Shown here in pieces: positions 42,503 through 57,347 of a stretch of 64,000 nucleotides of DNA; the stretch's first letter is position 1; every line of letters begins with the position of its first letter. The stretch comes from an uncultured Chloroflexia bacterium (lineage in GTDB: Bacteria > Chloroflexota > Limnocylindria > Limnocylindrales > CSP1-4). Below the pieces are notes generated by a model. It had not been told where the DNA came from. It saw only the letters and a list, made by a program, of their open reading frames with translations, and ran no database searches. The DNA lies in assembly GCA_963752475.1 (NCBI GenBank), contig CAVVYR010000014.1:64001-128000 (forward strand). Direction: 5' to 3'. The position numbers were made by a program, and so were the translations under genes.

Positions 42503-43735
42503 ATGAGTGACGCCAGTGGCGCAGGCGCGGCGACGATCGAGTTCGAGCACGTCTCCAAGCACTACGACGCGGGAACGCTGAAGTCCGGCGCCCCTGGTGC
42601 GGTCGACGACCTCTCGCTGACGGTGCCCGCCGGGCGCATCTGCGTACTCGTCGGTCCTTCGGGTTGTGGCAAGACCACGACCTTGAAGATGGTCAATCGG
42701 CTCATCGAACCCAGCTCCGGACGCATCCTCATCGACGGCGTCGATATCGCGGGCCAGGACGTGACCGAGCTGCGGCGCGGTATCGGCTACGTCATCCAGC
42801 AGGTGGGCCTCTTCCCGCACCAGTCGATCGCCGAGAACGTCAGCACCGTGCCCCGCCTGTTGGGCTGGGGCAGGGACAAGCAGCGCGCCCGCGCCGACGA
42901 GCTGCTGGCGATCGTCGGCCTCGAGCCGGGCAAGTACCGCGACCGCTATCCCAGCCAGCTCTCCGGCGGAGAGCGCCAGCGCGTCGGTGTCGCACGGGCG
43001 CTGGCCGCAGACCCACCGGTCATGCTCATGGACGAACCCTTCGGCGCGGTCGACCCGATCGTGCGCGGACGCCTGCAGAACGAGTTCCTGCGTCTGCAGG
43101 AGGACCTGGCCAAGACCATCCTCTTCGTGACTCACGACATCGATGAGGCCATCAAGATGGGTGATCTCGTCGTGGTCATGCAGCTCGGAGGCAAGATCGC
43201 CCAGGTCGGGGCACCCGCGGAGCTCCTGGCTGACCCTGCCAGCGAGTACGTGGCCCGCTTCGTCGGTGCCGACCGCGGACTCAAGCGCCTATCGCTGTAC
43301 CGCGTTGGCGATGTCGCGCTTGAGCCGGCACCGGCCGTTCGCGTGGGCCAGTCCGTGGGCGACATCCTGGCCGAGCACCGCGAGACGTACCACGGCTTCG
43401 CCCTGCTGGTTGACGATGCGGAGCAGCCCATCGGCTGGGTGGAGATGGCCGAGCTGGACCCCGGCTCGCGGTTGCACGAGGAGGATGCCGATCCCATGTC
43501 TCCCCTCCTCGACCCGCGAGCGACGCTCAAGGACGCCACCTCCCGCCTGCTCGATGCGGAGGTGCGCAACGGCGTGGTCACCGACCGAGATGGACGCGTG
43601 CTGGGCTTGCTCACGCTGCGAGCGATCATGGACTGGATGCAGGACGACCGCTCGCGTGACGTGCCCGACGACATCGCCGATGCTGTCGCCGAGGCGGTCG
43701 TAGCCGACCAGGAGCCTACGCCGCCGGCGGCGTAG
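42503..43735 (+). CDS. Osmoprotectant ABC transporter ATPase with CBS domains
   Basis: GPSGCGKT, GYVIQQ, LSGGERQR, MDEPFGAVDP. Confidence 0.93.
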   Translation: MSDASGAGAATIEFEHVSKHYDAGTLKSGAPGAVDDLSLTVPAGRICVLVGPSGCGKTTTLKMVNRLIEPSSGRILIDGVDIAGQDVTELRRGIGYVIQQVGLFPHQSIAENVSTVPRLLGWGRDKQRARADELLAIVGLEPGKYRDRYPSQLSGGERQRVGVARALAADPPVMLMDEPFGAVDPIVRGRLQNEFLRLQEDLAKTILFVTHDIDEAIKMGDLVVVMQLGGKIAQVGAPAELLADPASEYVARFVGADRGLKRLSLYRVGDVALEPAPAVRVGQSVGDILAEHRETYHGFALLVDDAEQPIGWVEMAELDPGSRLHEEDADPMSPLLDPRATLKDATSRLLDAEVRNGVVTDRDGRVLGLLTLRAIMDWMQDDRSRDVPDDIADAVAEAVVADQEPTPPAA

Positions 43736-43744
43736 GGAGCGGAC

Positions 43745-44407
43745 ATGATCGAGATCCGCTGGGACTGGATCGCGAGCCACCTCGACGACGTGGCGGAGAA
43801 GACGTGGCAGCACCTGCAGCTGCTGTTCATCCCCATGGTCGCGGGCTTCGTCATCGCCTTCGCCCTGGCGGTGCTGGCGCTGCGCCGCCCGGGTACGGTC
43901 GGTCCGGTCACCGCGGTCACCGGTTTGCTCTACACGATCCCCAGCCTGGCCGCGTTCGCCGTGCTCATCCCCATCACGGGCCTGTCACTGATGACCGCCA
44001 TCATCCCGCTGACCACGTACACGCTGCTCATCCTCTACGTCAACACCGTGGCGGGTCTGCGCTCCGTGCCACCAGAGGTGAACGAGGCTGCCGACGCGAT
44101 GGGCTACACGCAGCGCGCCCGACTCCTGCGCGTACAGCTGCCGCTGGCCATCCCGCTGATCTTCGCCGGCATCCGCGTCGCGGCGGTCACGACCATCGGC
44201 CTCGTCACCGTGGCCGCCATCATCGGCGGCAATCGCTTCGGCGGACTCGGCCAGTTCATCACCGAGGGTCTGCAGACGGACTTCGACACCAAGATCTACC
44301 TCGGTGCCGTGGGCTCGGTCATCCTCGCCTTCGTCGTGGACGGGCTGCTCGTCGGGCTGCAACGGCTGCTCACACCGTGGACGCGCGCACGAGCGGAGGG
44401 CGGCTAG
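43745..44407 (+). CDS. Osmoprotectant ABC permease
   Basis: YTIPSLA, EAADAMG, LPLAIP. Confidence 0.92.
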   Translation: MIEIRWDWIASHLDDVAEKTWQHLQLLFIPMVAGFVIAFALAVLALRRPGTVGPVTAVTGLLYTIPSLAAFAVLIPITGLSLMTAIIPLTTYTLLILYVNTVAGLRSVPPEVNEAADAMGYTQRARLLRVQLPLAIPLIFAGIRVAAVTTIGLVTVAAIIGGNRFGGLGQFITEGLQTDFDTKIYLGAVGSVILAFVVDGLLVGLQRLLTPWTRARAEGG

Positions 44408-44410
44408 ACC

Positions 44411-45145
44411 ATGGAACAGCTGCTGGAGTTCTTCGCTGACTCGGCCAACTGGCAGGGGGACACGGGCATCCCGAACCGGCTGCTGGAGCACCTCGCCATC
44501 TCCTTCCTGGCCGTGCTCACCGCCTCGGCCATCGCGCTTCCGCTGGGGTTCTACATCGGGCATACCGGCCGGCTGCAGCTGCTGGGCATCAACATCGCCA
44601 ACATCGGTCGCGCCATCCCGTCCTACGCGGTGATGGTCATGCTGCTTCCGATCATGCTCGGCTTGGCGCCGATACTGGGCTACGACCCGCGGCTCGGTCT
44701 GCGCTTCTTCCCCATCTTCCTGGCCATGGTGCTGCTGGCCATCCCGCCCATCCTCGTGGCCGCCTACGCCGGTCTGCAGGAGGTCGATCGCGACCTCACG
44801 GAGTCGTCGCGTGGGATGGGTCTGACCGAGCGGCAGATCCTGACCGGTGTGGAGCTGCCGCTGGCGCTGCCGGTGCTGGTGGGCGGCTTCCGCGTTGCGC
44901 TGCTGCAGGTCATCGCCACCGCCACCATCGGCGCGTTCCTCGCTGGCGGCGGGCTGGGGCGCTACATCATCGACGGCATCGCCCGCCGTGACGACGGCAT
45001 GCTCTATGGGGGTGTCGTGCTCGTGGCTGTGCTCGCGGTAGGCACGGACGTCCTGCTCTCGTGGCTTGAGCGTCGGCTCACGCCCAAGGGGGTTCGTGTT
45101 GCCACCGAACTCGAGGCTGAGCGCGCCGGCGCAGCGACATCGTGA
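44411..45145 (+). CDS. Osmoprotectant ABC permease
   Basis: GRAIPS, ESSRGMG, GGGLGRYI. Confidence 0.92.
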   Translation: MEQLLEFFADSANWQGDTGIPNRLLEHLAISFLAVLTASAIALPLGFYIGHTGRLQLLGINIANIGRAIPSYAVMVMLLPIMLGLAPILGYDPRLGLRFFPIFLAMVLLAIPPILVAAYAGLQEVDRDLTESSRGMGLTERQILTGVELPLALPVLVGGFRVALLQVIATATIGAFLAGGGLGRYIIDGIARRDDGMLYGGVVLVAVLAVGTDVLLSWLERRLTPKGVRVATELEAERAGAATS

Positions 45146-45245
45146 GGGGCCGCTACACGGAAATCGAACCGACTGGGCTAGGGTTATGCCGTGATCGCCG
45201 TCGCCAGATGGCGCCCGGTCACCGAATCGACAAAGGGAGGTACCC

Positions 45246-46205
45246 ATGCGGAGTACCCGCAGACTCGCCCTCGGGGCGTCGGTCCTGGCCACGGTCGCGT
45301 TGGTCGGAACGACGGGAGGGGGCGCGATCGTCTCGGCCCAGGATCAGCCGACCGTGCGTATCGGCTCTGACGGCTTCTACGAGTCGCAGCTGATGGCCGA
45401 GATCTACGCCCAGGCGCTCGAAGCCAACGGCTTCGGCGTCGACCGCCAGCTGGCTATCGGCGCTCGCCCAGCGCGCGTCGAGGCCTTCGAGTCGGGCCAG
45501 ATCGACCTCACACCCGAGTACGTCGGCTCCGGCCTCGGCTTCTACGTCGTCGGCTCTGAGAACGAAGAGCTCGCGGCCATCGAGGTCAGCGGCGACGGTG
45601 AGACCAACCGCACCAACCTGCAGGCAGCCCTCGATATCTCCGGCGTCGATGCCACCGTGCTGGCCATCACGGCCGGTGAGGACACCAACGCCGCTGTCGT
45701 GCGTGGCGATACGGCTGAGGAGCTCGGTGTCTCGAGCATCAGCGATCTGGCTGCGGTGGCCGACCAGGTCACCTTCGGACTGCCGCCCGAGTGCGAAGTG
45801 AACGCGCTTTGCCGCGGCGCGCTCGAGGATGGCTACGGCATCGCCTGGCCGCCCGCGAACCTGGAGCTGCTCCCGCCCTGTGGCGCTGAGATGGCCGGCG
45901 CGCTCGAGGGCAACGCCATCGACGTGGCTTGGCTCTGCTCGACCCAGCCGATCATCGCCCAGAACGGGTGGGTGGTCCTCGAGGACGACCTCGATACCCA
46001 GCCCGCCGAGAACCTGGCACCGATCGTGCGCAACGACTTCCTCGAAGGCGTCGACGGTGGCGCTGAGGCCATCGCCGCCATCCTCGACCCCATCTCCGCC
46101 GAGGTCACGACCGACGTCCTGACCGAGCTCGGTGTGCGCGTCGCCGTGGACCAGGAGTCCATCGACGACGTGGCCGCTGAGTTCCTCTCCAGCCTGGAGG
46201 GCTAG
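45246..46205 (+). CDS. Glycine betaine/osmoprotectant ABC substrate-binding protein
   Basis: Signal peptide, FYESQLMAEIYAQALE, PEYVGS, VLEDD; GGGAGG RBS. Confidence 0.9.
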   Translation: MRSTRRLALGASVLATVALVGTTGGGAIVSAQDQPTVRIGSDGFYESQLMAEIYAQALEANGFGVDRQLAIGARPARVEAFESGQIDLTPEYVGSGLGFYVVGSENEELAAIEVSGDGETNRTNLQAALDISGVDATVLAITAGEDTNAAVVRGDTAEELGVSSISDLAAVADQVTFGLPPECEVNALCRGALEDGYGIAWPPANLELLPPCGAEMAGALEGNAIDVAWLCSTQPIIAQNGWVVLEDDLDTQPAENLAPIVRNDFLEGVDGGAEAIAAILDPISAEVTTDVLTELGVRVAVDQESIDDVAAEFLSSLEG

Positions 46206-46273: not shown

Positions 46274-47197
46274 CTACATGCCCTGGCCGCGGAGCCACTC
46301 GCGGTTACGGGTGTGCAGCGCCAGCAGCGCCTCGGGCGTGTCCTCGTCCTTCACGAAACGGTCCTGTTCGACCGTGACCCAGCCGTCGTAGTCGCGCGCG
46401 ATGAGCGCCTCGAGGAATGGCTCGAGTCCCGCGGTGCCAGTGCCGAGCTCGCAGAACACACCACGGTCCCAGGCTTCGGTCATGCCGCCACCGGAGCGAC
46501 AGACCTCCGCCAGTAGGTCGAGGTCGCAGTCCTTGATGTGCACCAGGCGTACGCCATGGCCGTAGCTCTCGAGAAGCTCCAGTGGATCGGCACCGCCGAA
46601 GAGCGCGTGTCCGGTGTCGAGGCACATCCCCACCAGTCCAAGATCGAGGGCATCGAAGACGCGGTGGATCTCCGCGCCGCTCTCGCAGTAGCTGCCGGCG
46701 TGGAAGTGCAGCACCGGGTCGAAACCCCGACCGCGTGCCAGCTCGGCAGCCCGACCGATATTGTCGATGAAGGCGTCGAACCGCTCCGGAGGCAGCGTGG
46801 CTTCGGGATGAGCGTCGATCTGGCCGGCCCAGCGCATCCGCTCCGGCTCGACCGAGGCATCGGCCAGGACGGCCTTGGGCATGACCGCATCGGGACGGCC
46901 GGCTTCGAGCAGGTCGAGTACACCGCCCATCCAATCGAGGTCCTCCTCGATGTGCTCGGTGCGGCTGAAGCGGAGCGGCAGGAACGAGCCCACCATCGAC
47001 AGGCCACGGGACGAGAGCCGTTCCTTCATCAGCAGCGCCTCGCCGAAGAAGCCCGGTGGTCCCAGCTCCGTCCCGTCATAGCCGGCGGCAGCCATCTGAT
47101 CGAGCATCTGCTCGGGTCCCAGCTGCCGCGGGTCGTCGCCGGTCTGCTCGAACACACCCCACGAGACGGGTGCGGCCGCTACACGGATCTCGCCCAT
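46274..47197 (-). CDS. iolE: Myo-inosose-2 dehydratase-like TIM-barrel protein
   Basis: APVSWG, GTELG, HFHAG, LDTGH, HIKD, FCELGTG, VEQD; located in the iol operon. Confidence 0.75.
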   Translation of the reverse strand: MGEIRVAAAPVSWGVFEQTGDDPRQLGPEQMLDQMAAAGYDGTELGPPGFFGEALLMKERLSSRGLSMVGSFLPLRFSRTEHIEEDLDWMGGVLDLLEAGRPDAVMPKAVLADASVEPERMRWAGQIDAHPEATLPPERFDAFIDNIGRAAELARGRGFDPVLHFHAGSYCESGAEIHRVFDALDLGLVGMCLDTGHALFGGADPLELLESYGHGVRLVHIKDCDLDLLAEVCRSGGGMTEAWDRGVFCELGTGTAGLEPFLEALIARDYDGWVTVEQDRFVKDEDTPEALLALHTRNREWLRGQGM

Positions 47198-47207
47198 GAC
47201 TCCCCTC

Positions 47208-49076
47208 CTAAACGAACGAGCGCTCCTGGCGCAGGTCTTCCTCGTACTGTTCGCGTGCTGCTCGCACCCCCTCCGAGGTGGACACCTCGGCCACCGGCAC
47301 ATCCCACCAGCTGTCGTAGGCAGGCACGCCGGGCTCGGGGTTCGTCTCGACCACGACGACCGAAGGCCTGTCGGTGACCGCCCGCGCATCTCGCAGCGCA
47401 CGCTCCAGCTCCTCTGGCGTACCGGCCTCGAAGACGGCCGCACCCAGGCTGGCGGCGTTGGCTGCGAAGTCGACCGGCAGCACCTCGCCACTGAACGTGC
47501 CGCTCTCGGGATCGCGAGCCCGGAAATCGTTGAACGGATTGTCCGCGCCGCACGCGCCCGAGAGGTTGCGGATGCAACGGAACCCGTGGTTGTCAAGGAG
47601 CACGATGGTGAGGGCGATACCCTCCTGCCGCGCCGTGAGGATCTCGTTGGCCAGCATCAGGTACGAGCCATCACCGACCATCACATGGACTCGCCGATCG
47701 GGCTCGGCCATGGCCACCCCCACCCCGCCGGCGATCTCGTAGCCCATCGTCGAGTTGCCGTACTCCATGTGGTAGCTGCCCGGTGTCGACGGGCGCCAGA
47801 GCTTGTGCATATCACCGGGCAGCCCGCCCGCGGCGCAGACGACGACGCCGTCACCAAGCTGCTCGTTGACCAGCCGGATGGCCTCGGGCTGCGAGACGTG
47901 CGTCTCCGCGGCGAGGTGCAGCACACGATCGGCCTCCGCCTGCCACTCCGTGCGCAGACGAGCCACGCGTTCACGCTGCTCGGCAGGAGCTCCGCCCCAG
48001 CCGCGGGCGTCGAGTGCCGCGTGCAGCTCGAGCAGCGCCACGCGGGCATCACCGACCAGCGGCAGCGCCGCAGCCTTGGCGGCGTCGAGCTCGGTCACGT
48101 TGATGGCCACGAACCGAACATCCGGATGCTGCCAGGCCGACCAGCTCATGGTCGGGAAGTCGGAGAGTCGAGTGCCGATGGCGATGACCATATCGGCGTC
48201 GTGTGCCACGGCGTTGCCGGCGCTGGTACCGGTGGAGCCGATGGCGCCCATGTTCAGAGGATGGTCCCAAGGCAGCGCGCCCTTTCCGGCCTGGGTCTCG
48301 GTGAAGGGCACATCGAATCGACTCACGAAGCCGTCGAGGGCATCGGCAGCATCGCTGTAGACCACTCCGCCGCCGACGACGATCATCGGCCGCTGCGCCT
48401 GCACGATGAGATCGGCCGCAGCAGCCAGCGAGGAGGTATCGGGACGGGTCCGTGGGATGACCCACGTCCGCGGCTCCAAGAGGCCCTCGGGCCACTCGTG
48501 TGCCTCCGCCTGGACGTCTTGGGGCAGGGCCAACGTCACCGCGCCGGTCTCGGCCGGTGACGTCAGCACGCGCATGGCCTGAGGCAGGGCGTCGATGAGC
48601 ATCTCCGGACGCTCGATGCGATCGAAGTAGCGCGAGACCGGGCGGAGGACATCGTTGGCGCTGACATCACCCGCGAGCGGGTGCTCCAGCTGCTGCAGCA
48701 CCGGTTTCACCCGCCGGGTGGCGAAGCGATCGCCGGGCAGGAGCAGCACGGGCAGGCGGTTGACCGTGGCGTTGGCGGCGCCGGTGACCATGTTCGTCGC
48801 ACCCGGCCCGATGGACGAGGTGCAGGCGAACGTGCCCAGGCGCCGAGACTGCTTGGCGAACGCCGCCGCCGTGTGCACCATGGCCTGCTCGTTGCGGGCC
48901 TGGTAGTAGCGCACGTCGTCCTGGGCAGCCTCGAGGGCCTCGCCGATGCCGGCCACGATGCCATGGCCGAAGATGCCGAAGACGCCTTCGAAGAAGCGTC
49001 GGCGCTCGCCATCGCGCTCGACGTACTGGTTGGCCAGCCAGGCCACGAGGGCCTGGGCGACGGTGACTCGGGGCAT
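47208..49076 (-). CDS. iolD: 3D-(3,5/4)-trihydroxycyclohexane-1,2-dione acylhydrolase
   Basis: GIFGHG, RNEQAM, TSSIGPGATN, PVLQQLE, MEYG.S.MGYEIAG, GDGSYLM, WWDVPV. Confidence 0.96.
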   Translation of the reverse strand: MPRVTVAQALVAWLANQYVERDGERRRFFEGVFGIFGHGIVAGIGEALEAAQDDVRYYQARNEQAMVHTAAAFAKQSRRLGTFACTSSIGPGATNMVTGAANATVNRLPVLLLPGDRFATRRVKPVLQQLEHPLAGDVSANDVLRPVSRYFDRIERPEMLIDALPQAMRVLTSPAETGAVTLALPQDVQAEAHEWPEGLLEPRTWVIPRTRPDTSSLAAAADLIVQAQRPMIVVGGGVVYSDAADALDGFVSRFDVPFTETQAGKGALPWDHPLNMGAIGSTGTSAGNAVAHDADMVIAIGTRLSDFPTMSWSAWQHPDVRFVAINVTELDAAKAAALPLVGDARVALLELHAALDARGWGGAPAEQRERVARLRTEWQAEADRVLHLAAETHVSQPEAIRLVNEQLGDGVVVCAAGGLPGDMHKLWRPSTPGSYHMEYGNSTMGYEIAGGVGVAMAEPDRRVHVMVGDGSYLMLANEILTARQEGIALTIVLLDNHGFRCIRNLSGACGADNPFNDFRARDPESGTFSGEVLPVDFAANAASLGAAVFEAGTPEELERALRDARAVTDRPSVVVVETNPEPGVPAYDSWWDVPVAEVSTSEGVRAAREQYEEDLRQERSFV

Positions 49077-49108
49077 GTCGCTACCTCCTCCTCGACGTCG
49101 CCCGGCGT

Positions 49109-50215
49109 CTACGCCTTGACGTCCGGGTTCGGGACCAGCAGGTCGTCGATCGTGCCCACCAGCTCCCAGTACGAAGCGAGGAAGCCACGCAGCGTGCGCT
49201 GGGTGGCGCCGTACGTGGCGAACTCGTCGATGGACAGACCGTCGGGCTCGTAGGCCTTGACGAACTCGGGGCACCGTTCGAGCAGCTCCTCGAGGTAGGC
49301 CTGGGGCACCGGGTCGCTCCAGCGGTCCCTGACCTCCACCGCGGAGTCGTTGAACAACCGCTGCCAGCCGTAGGGGATGGTCATCGAGACGTTGCCGCCG
49401 ATGAGCTCGGACCAATGGAGGTGGTGGCGATAGGCCGCGGCCAGCAGGCGCGTGCGGTAGCCACGCTCCTCGAAGATGGCGGCGGCGCGCTTGAAGACGG
49501 CCACGCCGGCCCAGTCCGCGGCGCCTGGTGTCAGCGTCACGCCCTCGCGCGCCGCCCAGGCCTTGACCCAGTCATCGGTGCGGCCGATCATGATCGTGGC
49601 TACCGGCGCCATCCACGACGTGTCATGCCCGGCGGCTTCGCGCTTGGCCAGCGCCCGCTCCATGGCCTCGCCCACCGCGAGTGCCTGGGGCACGGTGAAT
49701 GAGACCGTGGCGTTGATGTTGAGGCCATCCTCGGCCACCGCCTCCATGGCCTCGATGCCGGCCCTGACCGCGGGGAACTTGATCTGGACGTTGGGCGCGA
49801 GCGTCTCGAAGTGGCGCGCCTGCTCGATCATCCGCTCGGGCGAGCGGTTGAGGCTGGGGTCGATCTGGATCGAGAGCCGGCCCTTCTGGCCGTGGCTGGC
49901 CTCGTAGATGGGCTCGAGCATCTTCCAGCCGCGCACGGCCATCTCCTCGATCACCTGCCACGTGATCTGCACGTCGCTCCAGGTCGGGTTGGCGGCCGCG
50001 ATCTCCCGCACTCGCGGCGCCCACGTCTCGTACTCCTGCTGCATCACCGTGCCCACGATCGTGGGGTTGGTGGTGGCCCCCACCGCACCGTTCTCGATGG
50101 CGTAGCGCAGTTCGCTCTCGTTGCACGAGTCGTTCCAGTACTCGGTCGGGAACTCACTCGCGGTGCGCTCGAGCGGGCTGGCATCGCCGGTCGTCGGGAT
50201 AGGGGTCTGGGTCAT
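49109..50215 (-). CDS. Transaldolase-family protein (atypical active site)
   Basis: WNDS, GATTNPTI, GRLSIQID, NVQIKFP (Schiff-base Lys), INATVSF, MIGRTDD. Confidence 0.88.
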   Translation of the reverse strand: MTQTPIPTTGDASPLERTASEFPTEYWNDSCNESELRYAIENGAVGATTNPTIVGTVMQQEYETWAPRVREIAAANPTWSDVQITWQVIEEMAVRGWKMLEPIYEASHGQKGRLSIQIDPSLNRSPERMIEQARHFETLAPNVQIKFPAVRAGIEAMEAVAEDGLNINATVSFTVPQALAVGEAMERALAKREAAGHDTSWMAPVATIMIGRTDDWVKAWAAREGVTLTPGAADWAGVAVFKRAAAIFEERGYRTRLLAAAYRHHLHWSELIGGNVSMTIPYGWQRLFNDSAVEVRDRWSDPVPQAYLEELLERCPEFVKAYEPDGLSIDEFATYGATQRTLRGFLASYWELVGTIDDLLVPNPDVKA

Positions 50216-50238
50216 GGATCGGCTCCTGTGTCTTGGCC

Positions 50239-51075
50239 CTACTCGGGCAGGTTCGGGTCCCAGTTCATCAACCAGGCGTGGTCTGGATCGACGGTGAAAT
50301 GCCAGGCCCGGTTGGGACCGGCCATCACGTTCAGGTAGTAGGCGTCGTACCCGGCCGGTGCTCCGAAGGGGTGGTAGCCGCGAGGGATGAGCAACACGTC
50401 CCGGTCAGCGGGGGCGTACGACTCGTCGAGCGAGCGGTCGGGTGTGTAGACGCGAGCGAAGCCCCAGCCCTCAGGGCGCCGGAAGCGGTAGTAGTACAGC
50501 TCCTCGAGATAGGCCTCGGTCGGGGGGTCCTCCGTGTCGTGCTTGTGGGGCGGATAGCTGGACCAGTTCCCACCCGGGGTGAAGACCTCGAAGAGGATCA
50601 ATCGCCCGGCCTCGACGGTCGGCGGCAGCAGGTGATGGATCGTTCGTCGGGTGATGCCCTCTCCTCGGGTCTCCACGTGGATGTCCGCGGGCTCGAACAA
50701 CTGCGTGCGCCTGTGCTCGGCGGCGGGAGCCTCCGCGACGATGACGGTGGACTCATCCTCGGCGACGACCTCCAGATCGAGATCTGGCTCCAGCAGGAGC
50801 ACCGGTGGGGCCGCGCCGTCGAAGACCGTGGCCCGACTCCCGAGCGACATCCATCGCTGGGATCCAGCGCGCACGCTGATGCTGCCTTCGAGCGCGACCA
50901 CGACGCGTTCGCGCTCCTCGGCGGGGCGTGCGACCGACTGGCCGGCCCGCAGGCGGTGCTCGGCGAAGCCCACGTAGCGCCAGCCGGCCGACTCCGGTGT
51001 GATGTCGTGGATCGTGCCCGTCCGCGCGGCTGCACGGCGAAGCAGCGCGTGCGACCCGACGCTGACGTTCGACAT
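50239..51075 (-). CDS. iolB: 5-deoxy-glucuronate isomerase
   Basis: GNWSSYPPHKHD, LEELYYY, GYHP, YYLNVMAGP; ATG 51075 after GGGAGGAG. Confidence 0.96.
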   Translation of the reverse strand: MSNVSVGSHALLRRAAARTGTIHDITPESAGWRYVGFAEHRLRAGQSVARPAEERERVVVALEGSISVRAGSQRWMSLGSRATVFDGAAPPVLLLEPDLDLEVVAEDESTVIVAEAPAAEHRRTQLFEPADIHVETRGEGITRRTIHHLLPPTVEAGRLILFEVFTPGGNWSSYPPHKHDTEDPPTEAYLEELYYYRFRRPEGWGFARVYTPDRSLDESYAPADRDVLLIPRGYHPFGAPAGYDAYYLNVMAGPNRAWHFTVDPDHAWLMNWDPNLPE

Positions 51076-51155
51076 GCGCCCACTCCTCCCGTGCTCCGGA
51101 CAGGCCCGCGCTCGCTCGCGCAACGGACGAGTGGACGAACGCTCGGCCCGCTACC

Positions 51156-51184
51156 ATCATACGCGCTGACGTAAACGTTTACAC
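51156..51184 (-). promoter_or_regulatory. iolB promoter with an overlapping LacI-type operator
   Basis: GTGTAA, 17 nt, TATGAT on the minus strand; perfect palindrome GTAAACGTTTAC at 51171-51182. Confidence 0.75.
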
Positions 51185-51276
51185 GTCGTCAGTGGGGAGC
51201 GCCCATCGACGTTGCACCGCCATCCACGATCAGGCCGAGACGCGCCAGACGACGCATCGCCAAGGCAGGAACCACG

Positions 51277-52344
51277 ATGCCCGACCACAACGAAGCCACC
51301 AAGCCAGCGACCATCCGTGAGGTCGCCGCGCGGGCCGGCGTTTCCACCGCTACCGTCAGCCGTTCACTGCGTGGTGGTGCGGGTGTGGAGCCGGCGACGC
51401 GCAAGAAGGTAGAGGAGGCGGCCCACGAGCTGCGGTACCGCCCGTCCGGCGTGGCTCGTTCGCTGAAGCTGCGCGCCACCAGCACCGTCGGTCTCATCGT
51501 GACCGACATCGAGAACCCCTACTTCCCGCAGATCGTGAGCGCGGTCGAGGATGCCGCGCGCGACCGTGGCTACACGGTCCTGCTGGCCGATGGGCGACGC
51601 GACCCGGAGCGCGAGCTCGAGTCGCTCGACATCCTCGCGGAGCGTGAGGTCGACGGCATGATCATCGCCAGCACCGCTGTCACGCAACGACACCGCGAGC
51701 GCATCCACGAGCTTCACTGCCCAGCCGTCATCGCCAACAGCGAGTCGACCGTGCCGGGTGTGCCGGCCGTGATGTCGGACAACGTCATGGGCGGCCGCAT
51801 CGCCGCCGAGCACGTCCTCGACCTGGGGCATCGGAAGCTCGTCTTCGTCGGCGATGATGATGACCACAACAGCGCGGTACAGGCGCGCATCGATGGCGCC
51901 CGGGCCGCGGTCGCCGAACGGGACGGTGCCGCATTCCGCTCGGTCGCCACGGTCGGTATCGGTGACGCCGCCGTCGAGGGTGGCATCCGCGCGGCCAGGC
52001 GTCTGGTCGACGGTTCGTTCGAGGAGACGGCCGTGCTCTGTCGCAACGACCTCACGGCCATCGGCGTCATGCGCGGACTGCTCACGGCCGGACTTCGCAT
52101 CCCCGACGACATCAGCGTGGTCGGCTACGACGACATCGAACTCGCCGCCTACGTCGACCCCTCGCTCACCACCGTCCGGCAGTCGACCGAGGAGATGGCC
52201 CGTCTGGCGGTGGCGACGTTGTTCGAGCGCCTGGGTCAGGGACGGGAGGCCGCCGACGAGCATCCCGATGCGCCACCCGGTGAGACGACGCGCGTGCCGG
52301 TGGAACTGGTGACGCGCGCCTCGAGCGGCCCCGCTCCTCGCTGA
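51277..52344 (+). CDS. LacI-family transcriptional regulator
   Basis: TIREVAARAGVSTATVSR, IPDDISVVGYDD, PSLTTVRQ. Confidence 0.96.
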   Translation: MPDHNEATKPATIREVAARAGVSTATVSRSLRGGAGVEPATRKKVEEAAHELRYRPSGVARSLKLRATSTVGLIVTDIENPYFPQIVSAVEDAARDRGYTVLLADGRRDPERELESLDILAEREVDGMIIASTAVTQRHRERIHELHCPAVIANSESTVPGVPAVMSDNVMGGRIAAEHVLDLGHRKLVFVGDDDDHNSAVQARIDGARAAVAERDGAAFRSVATVGIGDAAVEGGIRAARRLVDGSFEETAVLCRNDLTAIGVMRGLLTAGLRIPDDISVVGYDDIELAAYVDPSLTTVRQSTEEMARLAVATLFERLGQGREAADEHPDAPPGETTRVPVELVTRASSGPAPR

Positions 52345-52450
52345 TCCTCCTGGCGGGACGAGCCGGCGACGCAGTCGTCCGAAGCCGTAAGATGCGTGTT
52401 TGCGAGGTGGTAGCGACTCGCTATCGACATAGGAGGAGGTCTCCGAGCAG

Positions 52451-53449
52451 ATGAGGATCGCCATGTTCGGAGCGGGGCGTATCGCGCCGCTGCACGCCCG
52501 AACACTCAAGGCATCGCCGGACGTGTCCACCATCTCCATCACCGACGCCGTGCCGGAACGCGCCGCAGCGGCCGCCTCCGATCTGGGACTCGAGCATGTG
52601 GCTTCGGCGGACGAGGCCCTGGCCGCCGCCGACGCTGTCGTCGTCGTCGCCGCTACGAACGCCCACGCCGAGCTCATCCGAGCGGCGCTCGCGCGCGACC
52701 TCCCGACCTTCTGCGAGAAACCGCTGGCACCCTCGCTCGGGGAGTCGGCCACCCTGGCCGCGGAGATCGAGGCCGCCAAGGCTTCGGTGCAGGTCGGTTT
52801 CCAGCGACGCTTCGACCCGGCCTACGTCGAGGCCCGTCGACTGATCGAGTCCGGAGAGCTCGGCGACGTCTACACCATCAGCATGCGCAGCCATGACCCC
52901 GAGCCCGCATCGGAAGAGTTCATCGCGTCGTCCGGCGGCATGTTCAGCGACCTCTCCATCCACGACCTCGATGTGCTCCGGTTCCTCAGCGGGCGGGAGG
53001 CGACGGAGGTCTACTGTGTCGGTAGCGCCAAGGGCTTTCCGCAGTACGCGAAGTACGACGACTTCGCCAACGCAGTCGCGCTCATCACGCTCGATGACGG
53101 CACACCCGTCACGCTCACCTGGACGCGCCACGATCCCTTGGGCCATGACGTCCGCGCCGAGGTCTTCGGCTCACGCGACAGCGTCGCGGTCGGCCTGGGC
53201 CCGAGGATGCCGCTGCGTTCGGTAGAACCAGGCGTCCCGCCGCCCGAGGGTCCGCCCTGGACGATCTTCCTCGACCGCTGGGATGACGCCTATCGCGATG
53301 AGCTCCTCGCCTTCGTCGACATGGCCGCCGGTCGACTCGAGAACCCCTGCACCGCCAACGACGGCGTCGAAGCGCTGCGCCTGGCCGAAGCACTGACGGT
53401 GTCAGCCCGGGAACGCCGGATCGTGCGCATGTCCGAGGTCCCCGCATGA
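52451..53449 (+). CDS. iolG: Gfo/Idh/MocA oxidoreductase, probable inositol 2-dehydrogenase
   Basis: GAGRIA, CEKP, GFQRRFD, SGGMFSDLSIHD; located in the iol locus. Confidence 0.82.
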   Translation: MRIAMFGAGRIAPLHARTLKASPDVSTISITDAVPERAAAAASDLGLEHVASADEALAAADAVVVVAATNAHAELIRAALARDLPTFCEKPLAPSLGESATLAAEIEAAKASVQVGFQRRFDPAYVEARRLIESGELGDVYTISMRSHDPEPASEEFIASSGGMFSDLSIHDLDVLRFLSGREATEVYCVGSAKGFPQYAKYDDFANAVALITLDDGTPVTLTWTRHDPLGHDVRAEVFGSRDSVAVGLGPRMPLRSVEPGVPPPEGPPWTIFLDRWDDAYRDELLAFVDMAAGRLENPCTANDGVEALRLAEALTVSARERRIVRMSEVPA

Positions 53450-54240
53450 GCGACGCGACGACGACCGGCACACCGGTCATCGAAGCGCGCAACATCTCCA
53501 AGCACTTCGGGCATGTCAACGCCCTCGTGGGCGTCGACCTCACCCTGGCCCGGGGCGAGGTGCTCGGCGTCGTCGGCGATAACGGCGCCGGCAAGTCCAC
53601 CCTTATGAAGATCCTCTCCGGCGTCCACCCCGCCAGCAGCGGCGAACTGCTCGTCGACGGGCAGGTGGTGCACTTCGCCAACCCCGGCGATGCGCGCCGC
53701 ATCGGCATCGAGATGGTCTACCAGGACCTCGCCCTCGCAGGCAACCTGCGCATCGACGAGAACATCTTCCTGGGCCGCGAGCAGACGCGGAAGATCGGCC
53801 CCATCTCGCTCGTGGACCACCAGGCCAACCAGGCCCGAGCCATGGAGCACCTCGACAACCTCAGGATCCGTGTCAAGAGCGTCGGTCAGCGGGTCGAGGA
53901 GCTCTCCGGTGGTCAGCGCCAGGCCGTGGCCGTCGCGCGAGCGACCGCCTTCGATGCCAAGGTCGTGATCATGGACGAGCCCACCGCTGCGCTCGCGGTC
54001 AAGGAGGTGGCCAAGGTCCTCGATCTCATCAAGGGCCTGCGCGACAAGGGCATCGCGGTGATCCTCATCAGCCATCGTCTGGACGACATCTTCTACGTCT
54101 GCGACCGCGTGATGGCGCTCTACCACGGTCGCAACTTCGCCGACGGCGCGCTCGAGGGCATCGAACGCAACGAGGTCGTGGGCTGGATCATGGGCAACAA
54201 GGACGGCGCCGGCACCGAAGCCGCAGTCGACCACAACTAG
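53446..54240 (+). CDS. Sugar ABC transporter ATPase (single domain)
   Basis: GDNGAGKS, YQDLAL, LSGGQRQ, MDEPTAAL. Confidence 0.93.
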   Translation: MSDATTTGTPVIEARNISKHFGHVNALVGVDLTLARGEVLGVVGDNGAGKSTLMKILSGVHPASSGELLVDGQVVHFANPGDARRIGIEMVYQDLALAGNLRIDENIFLGREQTRKIGPISLVDHQANQARAMEHLDNLRIRVKSVGQRVEELSGGQRQAVAVARATAFDAKVVIMDEPTAALAVKEVAKVLDLIKGLRDKGIAVILISHRLDDIFYVCDRVMALYHGRNFADGALEGIERNEVVGWIMGNKDGAGTEAAVDHN

Positions 54241-54249
54241 GGCCGCGAG

Positions 54250-55269
54250 ATGTCAGAAGCCACGACCCCTGTCACCGACGCCGAAGAGACCTATCTGGAC
54301 GAACCCACCACGCTGGTCCGGATCATGGGCTGGGTCGACCGTTGGGGCGCCCTGTTCCTGGTACTCGTGATGGTGGTGCTGTCGTTCATCGCCCAGCCAG
54401 ACGTCTTCCTGACCGAGCGCAACGTCGGCAACATCTTCCGCCAGAACAGCTTCTACGCGATGCTTGCGCTGGGGCAGTTCATCGTCATCGTGACCGCCGG
54501 CATCGACCTGTCGGTCGGCTCGACGATGGCCTTGGCCGCGATGACCGCGGCTGTCCTCGCGGACGCGGAGATCTTCTGGCCGCTGGTGTTCCTGGCACCG
54601 TTCATCGTCGGTCTCGCCGTCGGCACCATCAACGGCCTGGGCTTGACCAGGCTGCACATGCCCCACCCCTTCATCATGACCCTGGGCATGCTCTTCATCG
54701 TGAGAGGCATCACCAACCTCATATCAGGTGGTGTGCCTATCAGCGGCCTCCCCGACGAGGTCCGTTTCCTGGGCGCCAACAACATCCCCGGTACGCTCAT
54801 CCCGGTCAGCCTCATCGTGGTGGTGGTGACGTACTTCGTGGTCTGGCTCTTCCTCAACCACGGCCGCCAGGGCCGCCACATCTTCGCCATCGGCGGCAAT
54901 CCGCAGGCGGCCAAGGTCAGTGGCGTGCCGGTGGAGCGGACGCTGGTGCTGGCGTACGCGCTCTGCGGGCTGCTCGCGGGCTTTGCCGGCCTGCTCCTTG
55001 CCGGCCGCACCAACTCAGGCTTCCCTGCAGCCGGCACCGGCGACGAGCTCTACGCCATCGCCGCGGTCATCATCGGCGGCGCCAGCTTCTTCGGTGGCCG
55101 TGGCACCGTACTGGGCGTCTTCGCCGGCGTGCTCGTCATCGGCATGCTGCGGAACCTGCTCAACCTGTCCGGCATCCCGTCGTTCTGGCAGCAGGTCGCC
55201 ATCGGCGTCGTGATCATCGGCGTCGTCGCCTTCGATGTCTTCCGTCGACGTGTCGCCGCTTCGGCTTGA
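54250..55269 (+). CDS. Sugar ABC permease (RbsC-like)
   Basis: GIDLSVGS, PFIMTLG, AIGGNPQAAKVSG, AAVIIGG. Confidence 0.93.
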   Translation: MSEATTPVTDAEETYLDEPTTLVRIMGWVDRWGALFLVLVMVVLSFIAQPDVFLTERNVGNIFRQNSFYAMLALGQFIVIVTAGIDLSVGSTMALAAMTAAVLADAEIFWPLVFLAPFIVGLAVGTINGLGLTRLHMPHPFIMTLGMLFIVRGITNLISGGVPISGLPDEVRFLGANNIPGTLIPVSLIVVVVTYFVVWLFLNHGRQGRHIFAIGGNPQAAKVSGVPVERTLVLAYALCGLLAGFAGLLLAGRTNSGFPAAGTGDELYAIAAVIIGGASFFGGRGTVLGVFAGVLVIGMLRNLLNLSGIPSFWQQVAIGVVIIGVVAFDVFRRRVAASA

Positions 55270-55425
55270 CAGTGCCCCGCCTTGGGCGGAGCGTATGTCG
55301 GGACCGACGCCAGCCAAGAAGGAGGTAGCCATCCGAGGTCAGGTCTGATCGTTCGTAGGAGGTGTGTACGGTGCTCCCCTGGGCAAGCCATGCCCGCACC
55401 GTCAGACGCAACTGGAGGAGGAACC

Positions 55426-56388
55426 TTGAAGACGACTCGAATCACAGGTCTTGCCGCTGCCGGCGTGCTGGCCGTTACGGCCATCACCCCCGTCGTCGCG
55501 CAGGACGAGATGAAGGATCCCGGCGCTGCCGCGGACAGCAAGCTGTACATGAACATGAAGGGCCCCGGCGCAGGCAACCCCTTCTGGGCCGCCGTCGAGG
55601 CCGGCGCGGTCGCCGCCGGCGAGGACTATGGCGTCGACCTGACCGTGCTGGCACCGCCGACGGAGTCCGATGTGACCGCGCAGATCGCTCAGGTCGAGGA
55701 CGCGGTGGCGCAGGGTGCGGCCGGCATCGCCATCGCCCCCACTGACCCCGAGGCCCTGGGCCCGGCGCTCGACGATGCCCTCGCGCAGGACGTGAACATC
55801 GTGTTCGTGGATTCCAACGGGAACAACGAGGGTGTGACCTTCATCGGCACCGACAATCAGGCAGGTGCCGCCATCGCCGGCGAGTACCTGTGCGACAACC
55901 TCGAAGAGGGCTCCAAGGTCGCTCTGCTCCAGGGCATCATCAGCACCACGACCGGCCAGCTGCGTGCCGAGGGTGGCGCTGAGGCGCTCAAGGCCTGTGG
56001 CCTCGATCTCGTGGCCGAGCTGCCCGCTGACTGGGACGTTCAGAGGGGCCAGGCCGTGACCGAGGACATCCTGACCCAGCACCCCGACCTCGCCGGCATC
56101 TTCGCGAGCAACGACAACATGGCGCTGGGCGCTATCGAGGCGCTCCGGCTGCAGGGCCTCATCGACCAGGTCACCGTGGTCGGCTTCGATGCCAACCCCA
56201 ACGCAGCTGACTCGATCCTTGCCGGCGAGATGTCAGCGACCGTCGCCCAGAACCCGTTCAACATGGGCTACTTCGGCGTCGAGAGTCTCATCGCGCTCAT
56301 CAACGGTGAGATGCTCGACCCGGTGATCGACACCGGCACCGTGCTCGTCACCGCCGAGAACGCCGCGGAGTTCGCTTCCGGCGAGTGA
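55426..56388 (+). CDS. Sugar ABC substrate-binding protein (RbsB-like, probably inositol)
   Basis: TTG 55426 after GGAGGAGG; signal peptide; NPFW, IGTDN, NDNMALG, VGFD, VAQNP. Confidence 0.92.
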   Translation: MKTTRITGLAAAGVLAVTAITPVVAQDEMKDPGAAADSKLYMNMKGPGAGNPFWAAVEAGAVAAGEDYGVDLTVLAPPTESDVTAQIAQVEDAVAQGAAGIAIAPTDPEALGPALDDALAQDVNIVFVDSNGNNEGVTFIGTDNQAGAAIAGEYLCDNLEEGSKVALLQGIISTTTGQLRAEGGAEALKACGLDLVAELPADWDVQRGQAVTEDILTQHPDLAGIFASNDNMALGAIEALRLQGLIDQVTVVGFDANPNAADSILAGEMSATVAQNPFNMGYFGVESLIALINGEMLDPVIDTGTVLVTAENAAEFASGE

Positions 56389-56401
56389 CCCTAGCGTTTC
56401 G

Positions 56402-56440
56402 AGAAGCCGCTCGCGCCCTCAGAGGCCGGGCGGCTTCTTC
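56402..56440. terminator. Hairpin terminator between convergent genes
   Basis: agaagccgctcg pairs with cgggcggcttct, followed by tc. Confidence 0.7.
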
Positions 56441-56453
56441 GTGTCCGGAGGGT

Positions 56454-57347
56454 TCAACGCATGCCCGCGATGCGGGCGAACAGCTGTCCGAACGTGGGCA
56501 CGGAGTTCATCCCGGGACCCTCGACCAGCAGGCTCGAGGCCGTCGCACCCATGAAGATGTCGCGGCCCAGCTTCTGACCTTCATCACCAGCCACGAGGCG
56601 GGCTGCCACGAGACCTGCCAGCATCGTGTCGCCTGCACCAGTGGGATCGATCTCCTCGATGGAGGGGACACTTGGGTACGCGCGAGCCTGCACGATGCGC
56701 CCGCCTCGCATACGCAGCATCAGGCCGCCGACGAGGCCGGCTGTGAGCAGGACATCGCATTCCTCTCCGACCCACGCGCCGACGTCGCGCAAGGAGAGAT
56801 CGCTGGGCACGTCATGGCGGCTGAAGGCAAGGATGTCTGCACGCTCCAGGAACGGCGAGGGGCCGGGTGCCTTCGGTGTCACCCGCTCCCCGGGCGCGAG
56901 ATCACGCAGGATGCCCTGCCAGGCGAAGGCGACGCAGGCCGAGGACGTAGGCACGTCGACCCAGTCGTCGTGGATCTCAGAGGCGATGGGTGCGAAGACG
57001 AACGCGGGCGCTTTCTCCCAGCCGTCGGGCAGCGCCTCCATGGGCACGGGATCGCTAAGCGAGCCACAGGTCTGGATGCGACCAGCAAGGGTCTCGACGT
57101 TGGTGAAGACCGGCCCGTTCGCGAGCGGCACCTCGATGATCTCCGCACCGGCATCGCGGATGAGATCGAGCTCGCGCGCGGTCGCCGCCTGCTCATCGAC
57201 ACCCAGGACCAAACCGGTCCGTAGTCCCAGCCGTGCCAGGGCCAGGGCTCCGAACGTGACGCCACCGCCCAGCATCCAGCCGCGCGGGTCCTCATCGCTG
57301 AGGTCTCGCGTGGCGGAGCCGACCACGACCACGTCAGGTACCTGCAT
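56454..57347 (-). CDS. PfkB-family carbohydrate kinase
   Basis: GGGVTF near the N-terminus; DPTGAGD anion hole. Confidence 0.88.
   Translation of the reverse strand: MQVPDVVVVGSATRDLSDEDPRGWMLGGGVTFGALALARLGLRTGLVLGVDEQAATARELDLIRDAGAEIIEVPLANGPVFTNVETLAGRIQTCGSLSDPVPMEALPDGWEKAPAFVFAPIASEIHDDWVDVPTSSACVAFAWQGILRDLAPGERVTPKAPGPSPFLERADILAFSRHDVPSDLSLRDVGAWVGEECDVLLTAGLVGGLMLRMRGGRIVQARAYPSVPSIEEIDPTGAGDTMLAGLVAARLVAGDEGQKLGRDIFMGATASSLLVEGPGMNSVPTFGQLFARIAGMR

Follow-up and report, generated by a model that had tools for sequence, protein, structure and literature searches.

Inositol, derived from phytate and from the organic matter of plants and soil, is a major source of carbon. In the described route for its catabolism, IolB yields 5-dehydro-2-deoxy-D-gluconate (DKG), a dedicated kinase, IolC, phosphorylates it, and an aldolase then cleaves the phosphorylated product. 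For this last step the accessible part of one survey lists only IolJ (class II) and DUF2090 (LacD/DUF2090 class I) as DKG-6-phosphate aldolases (Price et al. 2022, PMC9007349), and the available text of another defines iol clusters by iolB, iolC, iolD and iolE (Weber et al. 2022, PMC9430895). A different solution is found in sulfosugar catabolism, where, according to the accessible text of its description, a sulfo-transaldolase acts on a non-phosphorylated, distally anionic ketose, transfers the C3 glycerone unit to glyceraldehyde 3-phosphate and bypasses a dedicated kinase (PMC7491151). Here we describe a 64,000-nucleotide stretch of a soil/sediment Chloroflexota genome (contig C14, positions 64001-128000, hereafter the window; 4.25-Mb assembly, 38 contigs, 88.8% complete), in which an inositol operon encodes a divergent member of the transaldolase (TAL)/fructose-6-phosphate aldolase (FSA) family. 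We consider it probable, at roughly 0.65, that this TAL-like enzyme cleaves unphosphorylated DKG to malonate semialdehyde and a dihydroxyacetone unit. The original prediction for this locus had cited the sulfoquinovose transaldolase as a precedent, and the accessible text of PMC7491151 confirms that the precedent is real. The searchable literature, which leaves out supplements and subscription journals, yielded no paper that connects inositol catabolism or DKG with an enzyme of the transaldolase family.

The operon lies on the minus strand in the order iolB-TAL-iolD-iolE, and its reading frames were picked by third-position G+C together with family matches because the window has a G+C content of about 68%. 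The 5-deoxy-glucuronate isomerase IolB, which yields DKG (50239..51123; 294 aa), scores 304.3 bits against TIGR04378 (cutoff 205) and 305.7 bits against PF04962. IolD, the 3D-(3,5/4)-trihydroxycyclohexane-1,2-dione acylhydrolase (47208..49076; 622 aa), reaches 863.9 bits against TIGR04377 (cutoff 715), and the TAL-like gene (49109..50215; 368 aa) lies between the two. The last gene (46274..47197; 307 aa) encodes a xylose-isomerase-like AP_endonuc_2 TIM barrel (PF01261, 84.9 bits), a candidate inosose dehydratase of the IolE type whose best and sole relevant NCBIfam match is TIGR04379, at 130.7 bits against a cutoff of 290. The three gaps measure 23, 32 and 10 bp and each is followed by a Shine-Dalgarno-like motif, including GGAGGAGG upstream of the iolD start at 49076 and AGGAGG upstream of the iolE-like start, an ATG at 47197. 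These window copies are the sole close IolD and IolE homologs of the genome. Family models bear out the gene order and coordinates of both the operon and the divergent lacI-iolG-ABC transporter unit as first proposed. The proposed absence of iolC, iolJ and iolA from the operon likewise stands, as a family-model search of the locus found no homolog of IolC, class II aldolase, DUF2090 or methylmalonate-semialdehyde dehydrogenase (MMSDH, IolA). By the rule of at least three of iolB, iolC, iolD and iolE within 10 kb, as worded in the accessible text of PMC9430895, the locus counts as an inositol cluster through iolB, iolD and the sub-cutoff iolE-like gene, iolC being absent.

With 131 bits for PF00923 over residues 27-292 (cutoff 27), the TAL-like protein belongs to the TAL/FSA superfamily. 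It falls short of the transaldolase equivalogs (NF002881, 112 against 367 bits; TIGR00876, 92.7 against 233.75; TIGR00874, 39.3 against 396.2) and of the FSA equivalog (TIGR00875, 51.8 against 245.95). Among solved structures it comes nearest to two long transaldolases, from C. glutamicum (3r5e) and N. gonorrhoeae (3clm), with scores of only about 70-74 bits. HMMER alignments place the Schiff-base lysine, K146 in QIKFPA, opposite IKIPAT/IKVPAT of 3r5e/3clm. The donor-pocket Asp, Asn, Asn and Thr are kept as D29, N50, N168 and T170, and R212 and R263 fall at the positions where canonical TALs have their anion-binding Arg. In place of the catalytic Glu (SIEV/SLEV in 3r5e/3clm) the protein has Gln117 in SIQI, and in place of the Phe of ASFF(V/I)SR it has Met209 in ATIMIGR. 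We take these two positions to be Glu and Phe in characterised TALs, and the counterparts in TalB numbering are presumably E96, F178, K132, R181 and R228. The protein lacks both features that mark a bona fide transaldolase, the Glu of the Glu-Thr-water relay and the acid-base Phe. In FSA the catalytic water is organised by a Q59-T109-Y131 triad in which the Tyr is the main proton shuttle, as set out in the accessible part of PMC13259622; the Gln and Thr of this triad are present in the window enzyme and its Tyr position is Met.

K146, Gln117 and Met209 do not vary among the 118 relatives that share at least 63% identity. Down to 47% identity they stay invariant, along with R212 and R263, in every relative, linked to iol genes or not, and the Gln/Met substitutions extend to most full-length representatives down to about 27-30% identity. 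A library-wide search returned 3712 representatives at E<=0.001 and 281 at E<=1e-30. TAL matches from one family of the class (f4, see below) were flagged as carrying one internal TGA; this is a natural stop 4-5 residues before the end of the query and not recoding. That the gene is an ordinary housekeeping transaldolase is ruled out by a canonical short transaldolase elsewhere in the genome (C6:375853-376518; motifs SAEV, VKVP and SPFVGR) and by the replacement of Glu and Phe in the iol copy. The genome has three more TAL-like paralogs, which share 28-30% identity with the window protein, at C29:92168-93151, C6:362640-363650 and C16:12987-13901. They too have Gln at the position of the catalytic Glu, and the C29 paralog lies about 3 kb from DhaK (C29:88527-89456).

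The pairing of this TAL with inositol genes recurs well beyond the window. The nearest matching loci come from metagenome-assembled genomes (MAGs) labelled Candidatus Limnocylindrales or Chloroflexia. A first scan of genome contigs gave 43 loci; a second, which started from an alignment of diverse members, matched at least 599 stretches with 583 relatives among them, and 80 loci were kept. Pooled, the two scans and hand-chosen regions make a biased sample of 123 distinct TAL proteins in 137 loci. In the Chloroflexota loci of the first scan the orders iolB-TAL-iolD-iolE and iolD-(iolE)-iolB-TAL recur, and TAL again stands with IolB, IolD, IolE and IolG in the second. The iolB-TAL-iolD-iolE order is not a matter of chance, since it recurs in dozens of related MAG loci. 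According to their record labels, iol-linked TALs occur in Limnocylindria, Anaerolineae, Ardenticatenaceae, Gaiellaceae, Acidobacteriota/Terriglobia, Myxococcota, a deltaproteobacterial MAG and Propionivibrio. One Terriglobia cluster (L133) reads lacI-iolB-TAL-iolD-IolA-iolE-iolG and holds no kinase or other aldolase. IolB or IolD lies within 8 kb of TAL for 63 of the 123 proteins and IolB within 300 bp for 45, compared with four for an IolC-like gene and two for a LacD-like gene, both within 8 kb. When the IolC and class II aldolase of the present genome were used as queries (tblastn, E<=1e-10, at least 60% of the query), none of the 43 first-scan loci was matched, and one (L046) held a LacD-like gene.

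A maximum-likelihood tree, built by a quick method from 124 rows (Shimodaira-Hasegawa-like approximate likelihood-ratio support), groups the window TAL with support 100 in a clade whose 20 rows are all iol-linked. Elsewhere in the tree iol linkage is scattered and needs at least eight changes, and a separate clade of 18 rows comprises clusters without iol genes. Two loci, L021 (89% identical) and L060 (71%), show a Limnocylindria-type iol/TAL cluster under the labels 'uncultured Gammaproteobacteria' and 'uncultured Acidobacteriota'; wrong binning of contigs or wrong labelling of MAGs, and not gene transfer, is the probable cause. In L054, L057, L059 and L060 each tblastn piece of the TAL match covers less than 60%, despite flanking iolB, iolD and iolE; the cause may be frameshifts, errors in the assembly of long-read MAGs, or decay of these copies.

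Co-occurrence was followed in a single sample of 251 class genomes, many of them incomplete MAGs and some flagged as unpublished, sorted into families f1 to f5 and counted without genome G000 (thresholds: TAL, E<=1e-60; IolB, E<=1e-40; IolC, E<=1e-70; the PfkB-like kinase discussed below, E<=1e-30). TAL occurs in 55 of 73 genomes of f1, the family of the window, and in 36/83 of f4, and in none of f2 (0/10), f3 (0/82) or f5 (0/2). IolC shows nearly the reverse pattern, with 3/73 in f1, 0/83 in f4, 62/82 in f3, 2/2 in f5 and 0/10 in f2. IolB is found on both sides (f1 44/73, f4 27/83, f3 66/82, f5 2/2, f2 0/10). TAL and IolB co-occur in 66 of the 92 genomes with TAL, and in 50 of these 66 the two matches lie no more than 500 bp apart, in either order. 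The suggestion that TAL and iolC exclude each other holds nearly throughout by family (f1, f3 and f4) and fails in L153, L169, L173 and G000, so that the exclusion across the class is strong but not absolute. TAL and IolC are combined in G000, in G277 of the same genus, and in G145 and G250, where IolC sits in a separate iolD-iolC-iolB-LacD-like cluster. In one set of genomes that carry fetched TAL loci, IolC exceeds the cut-off in 4/35 and has no match at E<=1e-40 in 26/35; for another such set the figures are 4/25 and 15/25, and in three of its four genomes with IolC (L153, L169 and L173) it lies within the TAL cluster.

Two clusters of the sister family f3 (L075 and L076) are arranged as iolG / iolE-iolC-iolD-iolB. 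No recognisable IolJ or DUF2090 aldolase was found within the 18 kb examined there, and the L075 cluster has succinyl-CoA ligase genes as neighbours. DhaK, considered as a pointer to aldolase or transaldolase action of the TAL-like enzyme, is present in 53/92 genomes with TAL and 21/159 without, a comparison confounded by phylogeny. Among the 50 genomes with adjacent TAL and IolB, DhaK is present in 30 and was not found in 20, several of which are assembled in 1-8 contigs.

The genes that accompany TAL also agree with the proposed products. An IolA-type aldehyde dehydrogenase (ALDH) lies within 8 kb of TAL for 37 of the 123 proteins and within 300 bp for 23. All three TAL-adjacent ALDHs that were tested exceed the cutoff of TIGR01722 (448.5 bits), which by its model name denotes a CoA-acylating (methyl)malonate-semialdehyde dehydrogenase. 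They come from the Terriglobia iol cluster L133 (569.8 bits), a Limnocylindria cluster without iol genes (L079, 614.5 bits) and Marispirochaeta (L053, 506.8 bits). In G145 the TAL stands with a thiolase, MMSDH, an IolE-like gene and the PfkB-like kinase. Recurrent pairing of TAL with IolA is as expected if the TAL reaction frees malonate semialdehyde.

Set beside gene content, synteny, co-occurrence and residue conservation, the chemistry of DKG lets us infer what the enzyme would act on, what it would release and where the C3 unit would go. Written from its CH2OH end, DKG is CH2OH-CO-CHOH-CHOH-CH2-COO-, and by our own derivation from the Fischer projection of D-gluconate it has the (3S,4R) D-threo configuration of D-fructose, a head group common to TAL/FSA donors, so that the fructose-like threo argument of the original prediction is sound. 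Its carboxylate is positioned like C6 of fructose 6-phosphate. In the proposed pathway the ABC transporter would import inositol, IolG would oxidise it to 2-keto-myo-inositol, the IolE-like dehydratase and IolD would lead through ring opening to 5-deoxy-glucuronate, and IolB would convert this to DKG. K146 would then form an imine with the C5 keto group of DKG, and retro-aldol cleavage between C3 and C4 would give malonate semialdehyde, its carboxylate held by R212 and R263 where canonical enzymes hold the sugar phosphate. The bound dihydroxyacetone enamine could be passed to glyceraldehyde 3-phosphate to give fructose 6-phosphate, as in a transaldolase, or be hydrolysed to free dihydroxyacetone, as in FSA. 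Gln117 points to FSA-like behaviour, and the missing Tyr argues against it. Malonate semialdehyde would go on to acetyl-CoA through the IolA-type dehydrogenase encoded on C6 (C6:172003-173436, 687 bits). The TAL-like enzyme would in this way replace the dedicated IolC kinase together with the IolJ or DUF2090 aldolase. A dedicated kinase would be lost and ATP not necessarily saved, since fructose 6-phosphate or dihydroxyacetone still needs a phosphoryl group.

Several findings weigh against cleavage of unphosphorylated DKG by this enzyme, and a number of them also speak for an accessory role, in which IolC and a LacD-like aldolase encoded on contig C12 would handle DKG and the TAL-like enzyme would only shuffle triose and hexose phosphates. 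The IolE-like and IolG-like proteins are both below their equivalog cutoffs. The TAL-like protein lacks the catalytic Glu as well as the Phe/Tyr of the two characterised branches, and the reaction mode cannot be read from the sequence of such a hybrid, which has an FSA-like Gln and neither Phe nor Tyr. The family-level pattern of TAL and IolC reflects few phylogenetic events, since relatives are not independent. This genome, moreover, is not kinase-free, so the canonical route may run here in parallel. An IolC equivalog (C12:17322-18239, 347 bits, cutoff 300), with an FGGY kinase, a ROK protein and a Gfo-family oxidoreductase as neighbours, lies about 14.5 kb beyond a second IolB (223 bits, cutoff 205) and a LacD-like class I aldolase (C12:1842-2807; PRK12858, 212 bits, cutoff 184), a pair that occupies C12:784-2807 at the contig start. 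The original prediction had named canonical genes elsewhere as a circumstance that would count against it, and the C12 genes supply a part of this, namely the IolC equivalog and the second IolB with its LacD-like partner. Certain clusters elsewhere also combine the two systems. L153, L169 and L173 hold TAL and a true IolC over the cut-off (in L169 the IolC frame is 661 aa long, as large as an IolC-DUF2090 fusion), in L168 an IolC-like gene stands beside TAL, and L046 has a second IolB and LacD-like pair beside iolB-TAL. Because of such clusters TAL is not a simple replacement everywhere.

The C12 set resembles the IolC-DUF2090 route with its parts unfused and is possibly truncated by the contig end; the iolC-iolB-LacD-like triad, with its own iolD, is also seen in G145 (L083), G250 (L085) and L153. 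Other aldolases of the genome include a class II ketose-bisphosphate aldolase beside an FGGY kinase (C8:2271-3104) and a LacD-like aldolase paired with PfkB on C19. Altogether, family matches to class II or DUF2090/LacD-type aldolases fall on C8, C6, C19 and C12, with none in the window locus.

If it had an accessory role, the TAL-like enzyme would act as a fructose 6-phosphate/sedoheptulose 7-phosphate transaldolase or a fructose 6-phosphate aldolase, linking dihydroxyacetone phosphate and glyceraldehyde 3-phosphate to the pentose-phosphate pathway or gluconeogenesis, a role that R212 and R263, kept at the canonical anion-binding positions, would also suit. We think this rather unlikely. Most TAL-bearing genomes lack IolC (no match at E<=1e-40 in 26/35 and 15/25; at E<=1e-70 IolC occurs in 3/73 of f1 and 0/83 of f4), this genome already has a canonical TAL elsewhere, and the canonical Glu and Phe are replaced throughout the clade. 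The tie of TAL to iolB (50/66 within 500 bp), and often to IolA, suits conversion of DKG to malonate semialdehyde. A TAL route that serves as an alternative or parallel branch fits the parallel IolC/LacD clusters, the genome with both routes and the TAL clusters without iol genes, and an accessory role or a different substrate would be compatible with these as well.

In a second explanation the enzyme would cleave or form a different ketose related to the pathway. This could be 5-dehydro-D-gluconate or some other ketose that is deoxy or bears a distal anion, a compound arising from other inositol isomers, or an intermediate shared with transketolase clusters; the link to iolB would then arise through an IolB-type isomerase product other than DKG. 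In the class, 26 of the 92 genomes with TAL have no IolB match, and a whole clade of TAL clusters lacks iol genes, which implies a substrate range for the subfamily that is wider than, or unlike, DKG alone. The active-site residues are identical in iol-linked and non-iol members, so that context alone sets the substrate guess. The clusters concerned are found in Limnocylindria (L079 6831-14135; L078, L107, L121, L141 and others) and comprise GntR, a phosphoenolpyruvate (PEP)-utiliser, TAL, IolA-type MMSDH and a split transketolase, the PEP-utiliser being about 588 aa long, with a PEP-utilising mobile domain, and PRK08296-like. Judged by its genes, this arrangement suggests combined cleavage of a non-phosphorylated ketose acid by TAL and transketolase. 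Spirochaete relatives, 52-57% identical, stand in two contexts, neither with iol genes: a TauE/SafE exporter - GntR - TAL - MMSDH locus in Marispirochaeta (L053 8360-13432), and in Sphaerochaetaceae (L048 2341-16372) a sugar ABC transporter, a TIM-barrel isomerase-like protein, a short-chain dehydrogenase/reductase, a Zn-dependent alcohol dehydrogenase, a split transketolase, an ALDH, a carboxyltransferase and, encoded on the other strand, a GH31 glycosidase. We also considered whether these relatives are sulfofructose transaldolases; the ALDH adjacent to the L053 TAL is of MMSDH/IolA type, and no sulfo-sugar assignment was made. For the window enzyme we regard a substrate other than DKG as unlikely, given that its clade is iol-linked in 20/20 rows with high-scoring IolB and IolD, and that the IolA-type partner suits malonate semialdehyde, the exact product expected from DKG.

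These relatives also allow a broader proposal, which we put forward as speculative, possible but doubtful. The Gln/Met-type TALs would form a large branch acting on non-phosphorylated carboxylated ketoses, with the window enzyme as its founding member, a DKG:glyceraldehyde-3-phosphate glyceronetransferase that yields fructose 6-phosphate and malonate semialdehyde. Inositol catabolism would thereby have a third way through its last step, one that needs no dedicated kinase and extends over at least five phyla, and in the sister clusters TAL and split transketolase would both cleave the same ketose. The transketolase arm would give a C4 aldehyde-acid, which the ALDH could oxidise to malate. The published transketolase/transaldolase pathway for sulfoquinovose is reportedly bifurcated; TAL may branch alongside transketolase in a similar way, and the scheme proposed here would be analogous to it.

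The third candidate for the DKG step is a kinase. A divergent PfkB/ribokinase-family gene (56454..57347, minus strand), convergent with the transporter, has only weak PfkB matches as a single sequence (PF00294, 29 bits, C-terminal part only), with the GAGD catalytic motif kept. The IolC model TIGR04382 does not match it at E<=0.001, and of the others only TagKinase (20 bits) and RibKin (19 bits) do. Its family is narrow, with 761 matches at E<=0.001 among 8000 candidates scored. When a profile of 29 family members was compared with the PDB, the generic ATP half matched the nucleoside kinase MJ0406, and the substrate half matched 3w4s, the myo-inositol 3-kinase MI3K_TK of T. kodakarensis (E 8e-4, residues 7-173), and TM0415 (E 5e-3). 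The inositol-contacting residues of MI3K_TK are given as D12, G26, Q136, R140 and D219 in the accessible text of PMC5931981, and the invariant D15, G28, Q144, R148 and D240 of the kinase align with them. The kinase is near-universal in f1 (70/73), with or without TAL or IolB, is absent from f2 (0/10), f3 (0/82), f4 (0/83) and f5 (0/2), and does not occur in the iolB-TAL-iolD clusters of other phyla among the fetched loci. On the strength of this residue alignment and distribution it is probably a cyclitol kinase, with tentative membership, given the weak overall similarity (E 8e-4), in the MI3K/TM0415 group of myo-inositol kinases.

A cyclitol kinase is unlikely to be the missing DKG kinase, and the caveat in the original prediction that this PfkB could act as IolC is weakened to the point where we largely reject it. 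That it is a non-orthologous DKG kinase, with the TAL-like or another aldolase acting on DKG-6-phosphate, is highly improbable: for this speak its GAGD motif and its position within 8 kb of TAL for 18 of the 123 proteins, all in Limnocylindria-type loci and including the rearranged L026, L037, L082 and L084, and against it speak the five kept inositol-contacting residues, its presence in f1 genomes without TAL or IolB and its absence from f4 despite TAL-IolB clusters there, and the poor fit of a 6-phosphate beside the imine carbon to TAL/FSA donor chemistry. To our knowledge, all known TAL/FSA donors carry a free hydroxymethyl group.

The remaining genes of the locus are read from the plus strand. 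A LacI-family repressor (51277..52344; PF00356, PF13377 and PF00532; top NCBIfam matches RbsR-like and sub-cutoff) is followed by the IolG-like inositol 2-dehydrogenase of the Gfo/Idh/MocA family (52451..53449; best match TIGR04380, 279.9 bits against a cutoff of 355; PF01408 and PF22725). Next comes a sugar-type ABC transporter with ATPase (53446..54240; PF00005), permease (54250..55269; PF02653) and periplasmic binding protein (55282..56388; PF13407). Its NCBIfam matches are of ribose/allose type and sub-cutoff, and its gene context would make it specific for inositol. The divergent intergenic region between iolB and lacI contains a perfect 12-bp palindrome, GTAAACGTTTAC, at 51171..51182. 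It occurs once in the window when up to one mismatch is allowed, appears in 0 of 100 shuffles, and recurs directly upstream of iolB in 10 of 137 scanned loci, which makes its role as a LacI-family operator plausible.

Assembled contigs from RNA libraries (3 libraries from 3 studies; 151-242 nt, 0-3 differences) map on iolE, iolD, TAL and iolB, and one of them (49016-49166) spans the TAL/iolD junction. As DNA carry-over is possible in assembled contigs, they show presence and not transcription, and give a weak hint that the operon is expressed; parts that they leave uncovered carry no weight either way. Both flanks of the locus are unrelated to inositol. An OpuA-type glycine-betaine ABC transporter (CBS-domain ATPase, two permeases and OpuAC; 42503-46205, plus strand) adjoins the end of the iol operon, and an osmolyte transporter beside inositol uptake may be a coincidence. 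Past the kinase lie ychF, a 2-hydroxyacid dehydrogenase and a zincin-like peptidase.

Surveys of inositol utilisers rely on iolB, iolC, iolD and iolE as a genomic marker. If the TAL-like enzyme does cleave DKG, such surveys, and GapMind-like tools, would score the route as incomplete in the lineages that carry it (Limnocylindria, Anaerolineae, Gaiellaceae and some Acidobacteriota). Next to IolJ and DUF2090 there would be a third enzymatic answer to DKG cleavage, and sugar acids would join sulfosugars as non-phosphorylated anionic substrates of transaldolases. A large TAL-like clade that lacks the canonical acid-base residues would also gain its first functional anchor. For biocatalysis, aldolases that use a dihydroxyacetone donor and accept carboxylated aldehydes are of interest as useful enzymes.

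Compared with the known systems, the window enzyme shares with canonical transaldolases (E. coli TalB type; 3r5e and 3clm) the PF00923 fold, the Lys motif, the donor pocket and the two Arg, and differs from them in having Gln (SIQI) and Met (T-I-M-I-G-R) where they have Glu and Phe. With FSA it shares Gln at the Glu position, which would suit release of free dihydroxyacetone, but FSA is about 220 aa long and has the triad Tyr, whereas the window enzyme has 368 aa and Met in that place. IolC with IolJ, or the IolC-DUF2090 fusion, fills the same pathway slot, after IolB and before IolA, with the same carbon products; these enzymes, a PfkB kinase with a class II or a LacD/DUF2090 class I aldolase, belong to unrelated families and need ATP and a phosphorylated substrate, and none of them lies in the window locus. 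The neighbouring PfkB-like kinase has the ribokinase fold of MI3K_TK and TM0415 and their five inositol-contacting residues in alignment, although the similarity is weak (E 8e-4 and 5e-3, family profile). TM0415 itself lies within an inositol catabolic operon and its physiological role is described as unclear in the accessible text of PMC5931981.

In its proposed action the enzyme comes closest to the sulfofructose transaldolases (SF-TALs; SftT/SqvA, PDB 8bc3 BmSF-TAL), which like it belong to the TAL/FSA family and work through a Schiff base. Their product, a C3 aldehyde-acid analogue, is oxidised by a neighbouring aldehyde dehydrogenase, as described in the accessible text of PMC7491151, and the reaction proposed for DKG would be the carboxylate analogue. 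Known SF-TALs are short, at about 220-226 aa, whereas the window protein, at 368 aa, is of the long actinobacterial/Neisseria type. 8bc3 matches it along only about 70 residues, at 31.6 bits (E 1e-6), which does not amount to a close relationship to SftT, and the gene context in the window is one of iol genes and not of sulfoquinovose genes such as an isomerase, an SLA dehydrogenase or reductase, an exporter and a sulfoquinovosidase. The locus is, apparently and by analogy, an iol pathway in which the kinase and aldolase steps are replaced by a TAL-family enzyme that would act like a sulfo-transaldolase from outside the sulfo-transaldolase subfamily.

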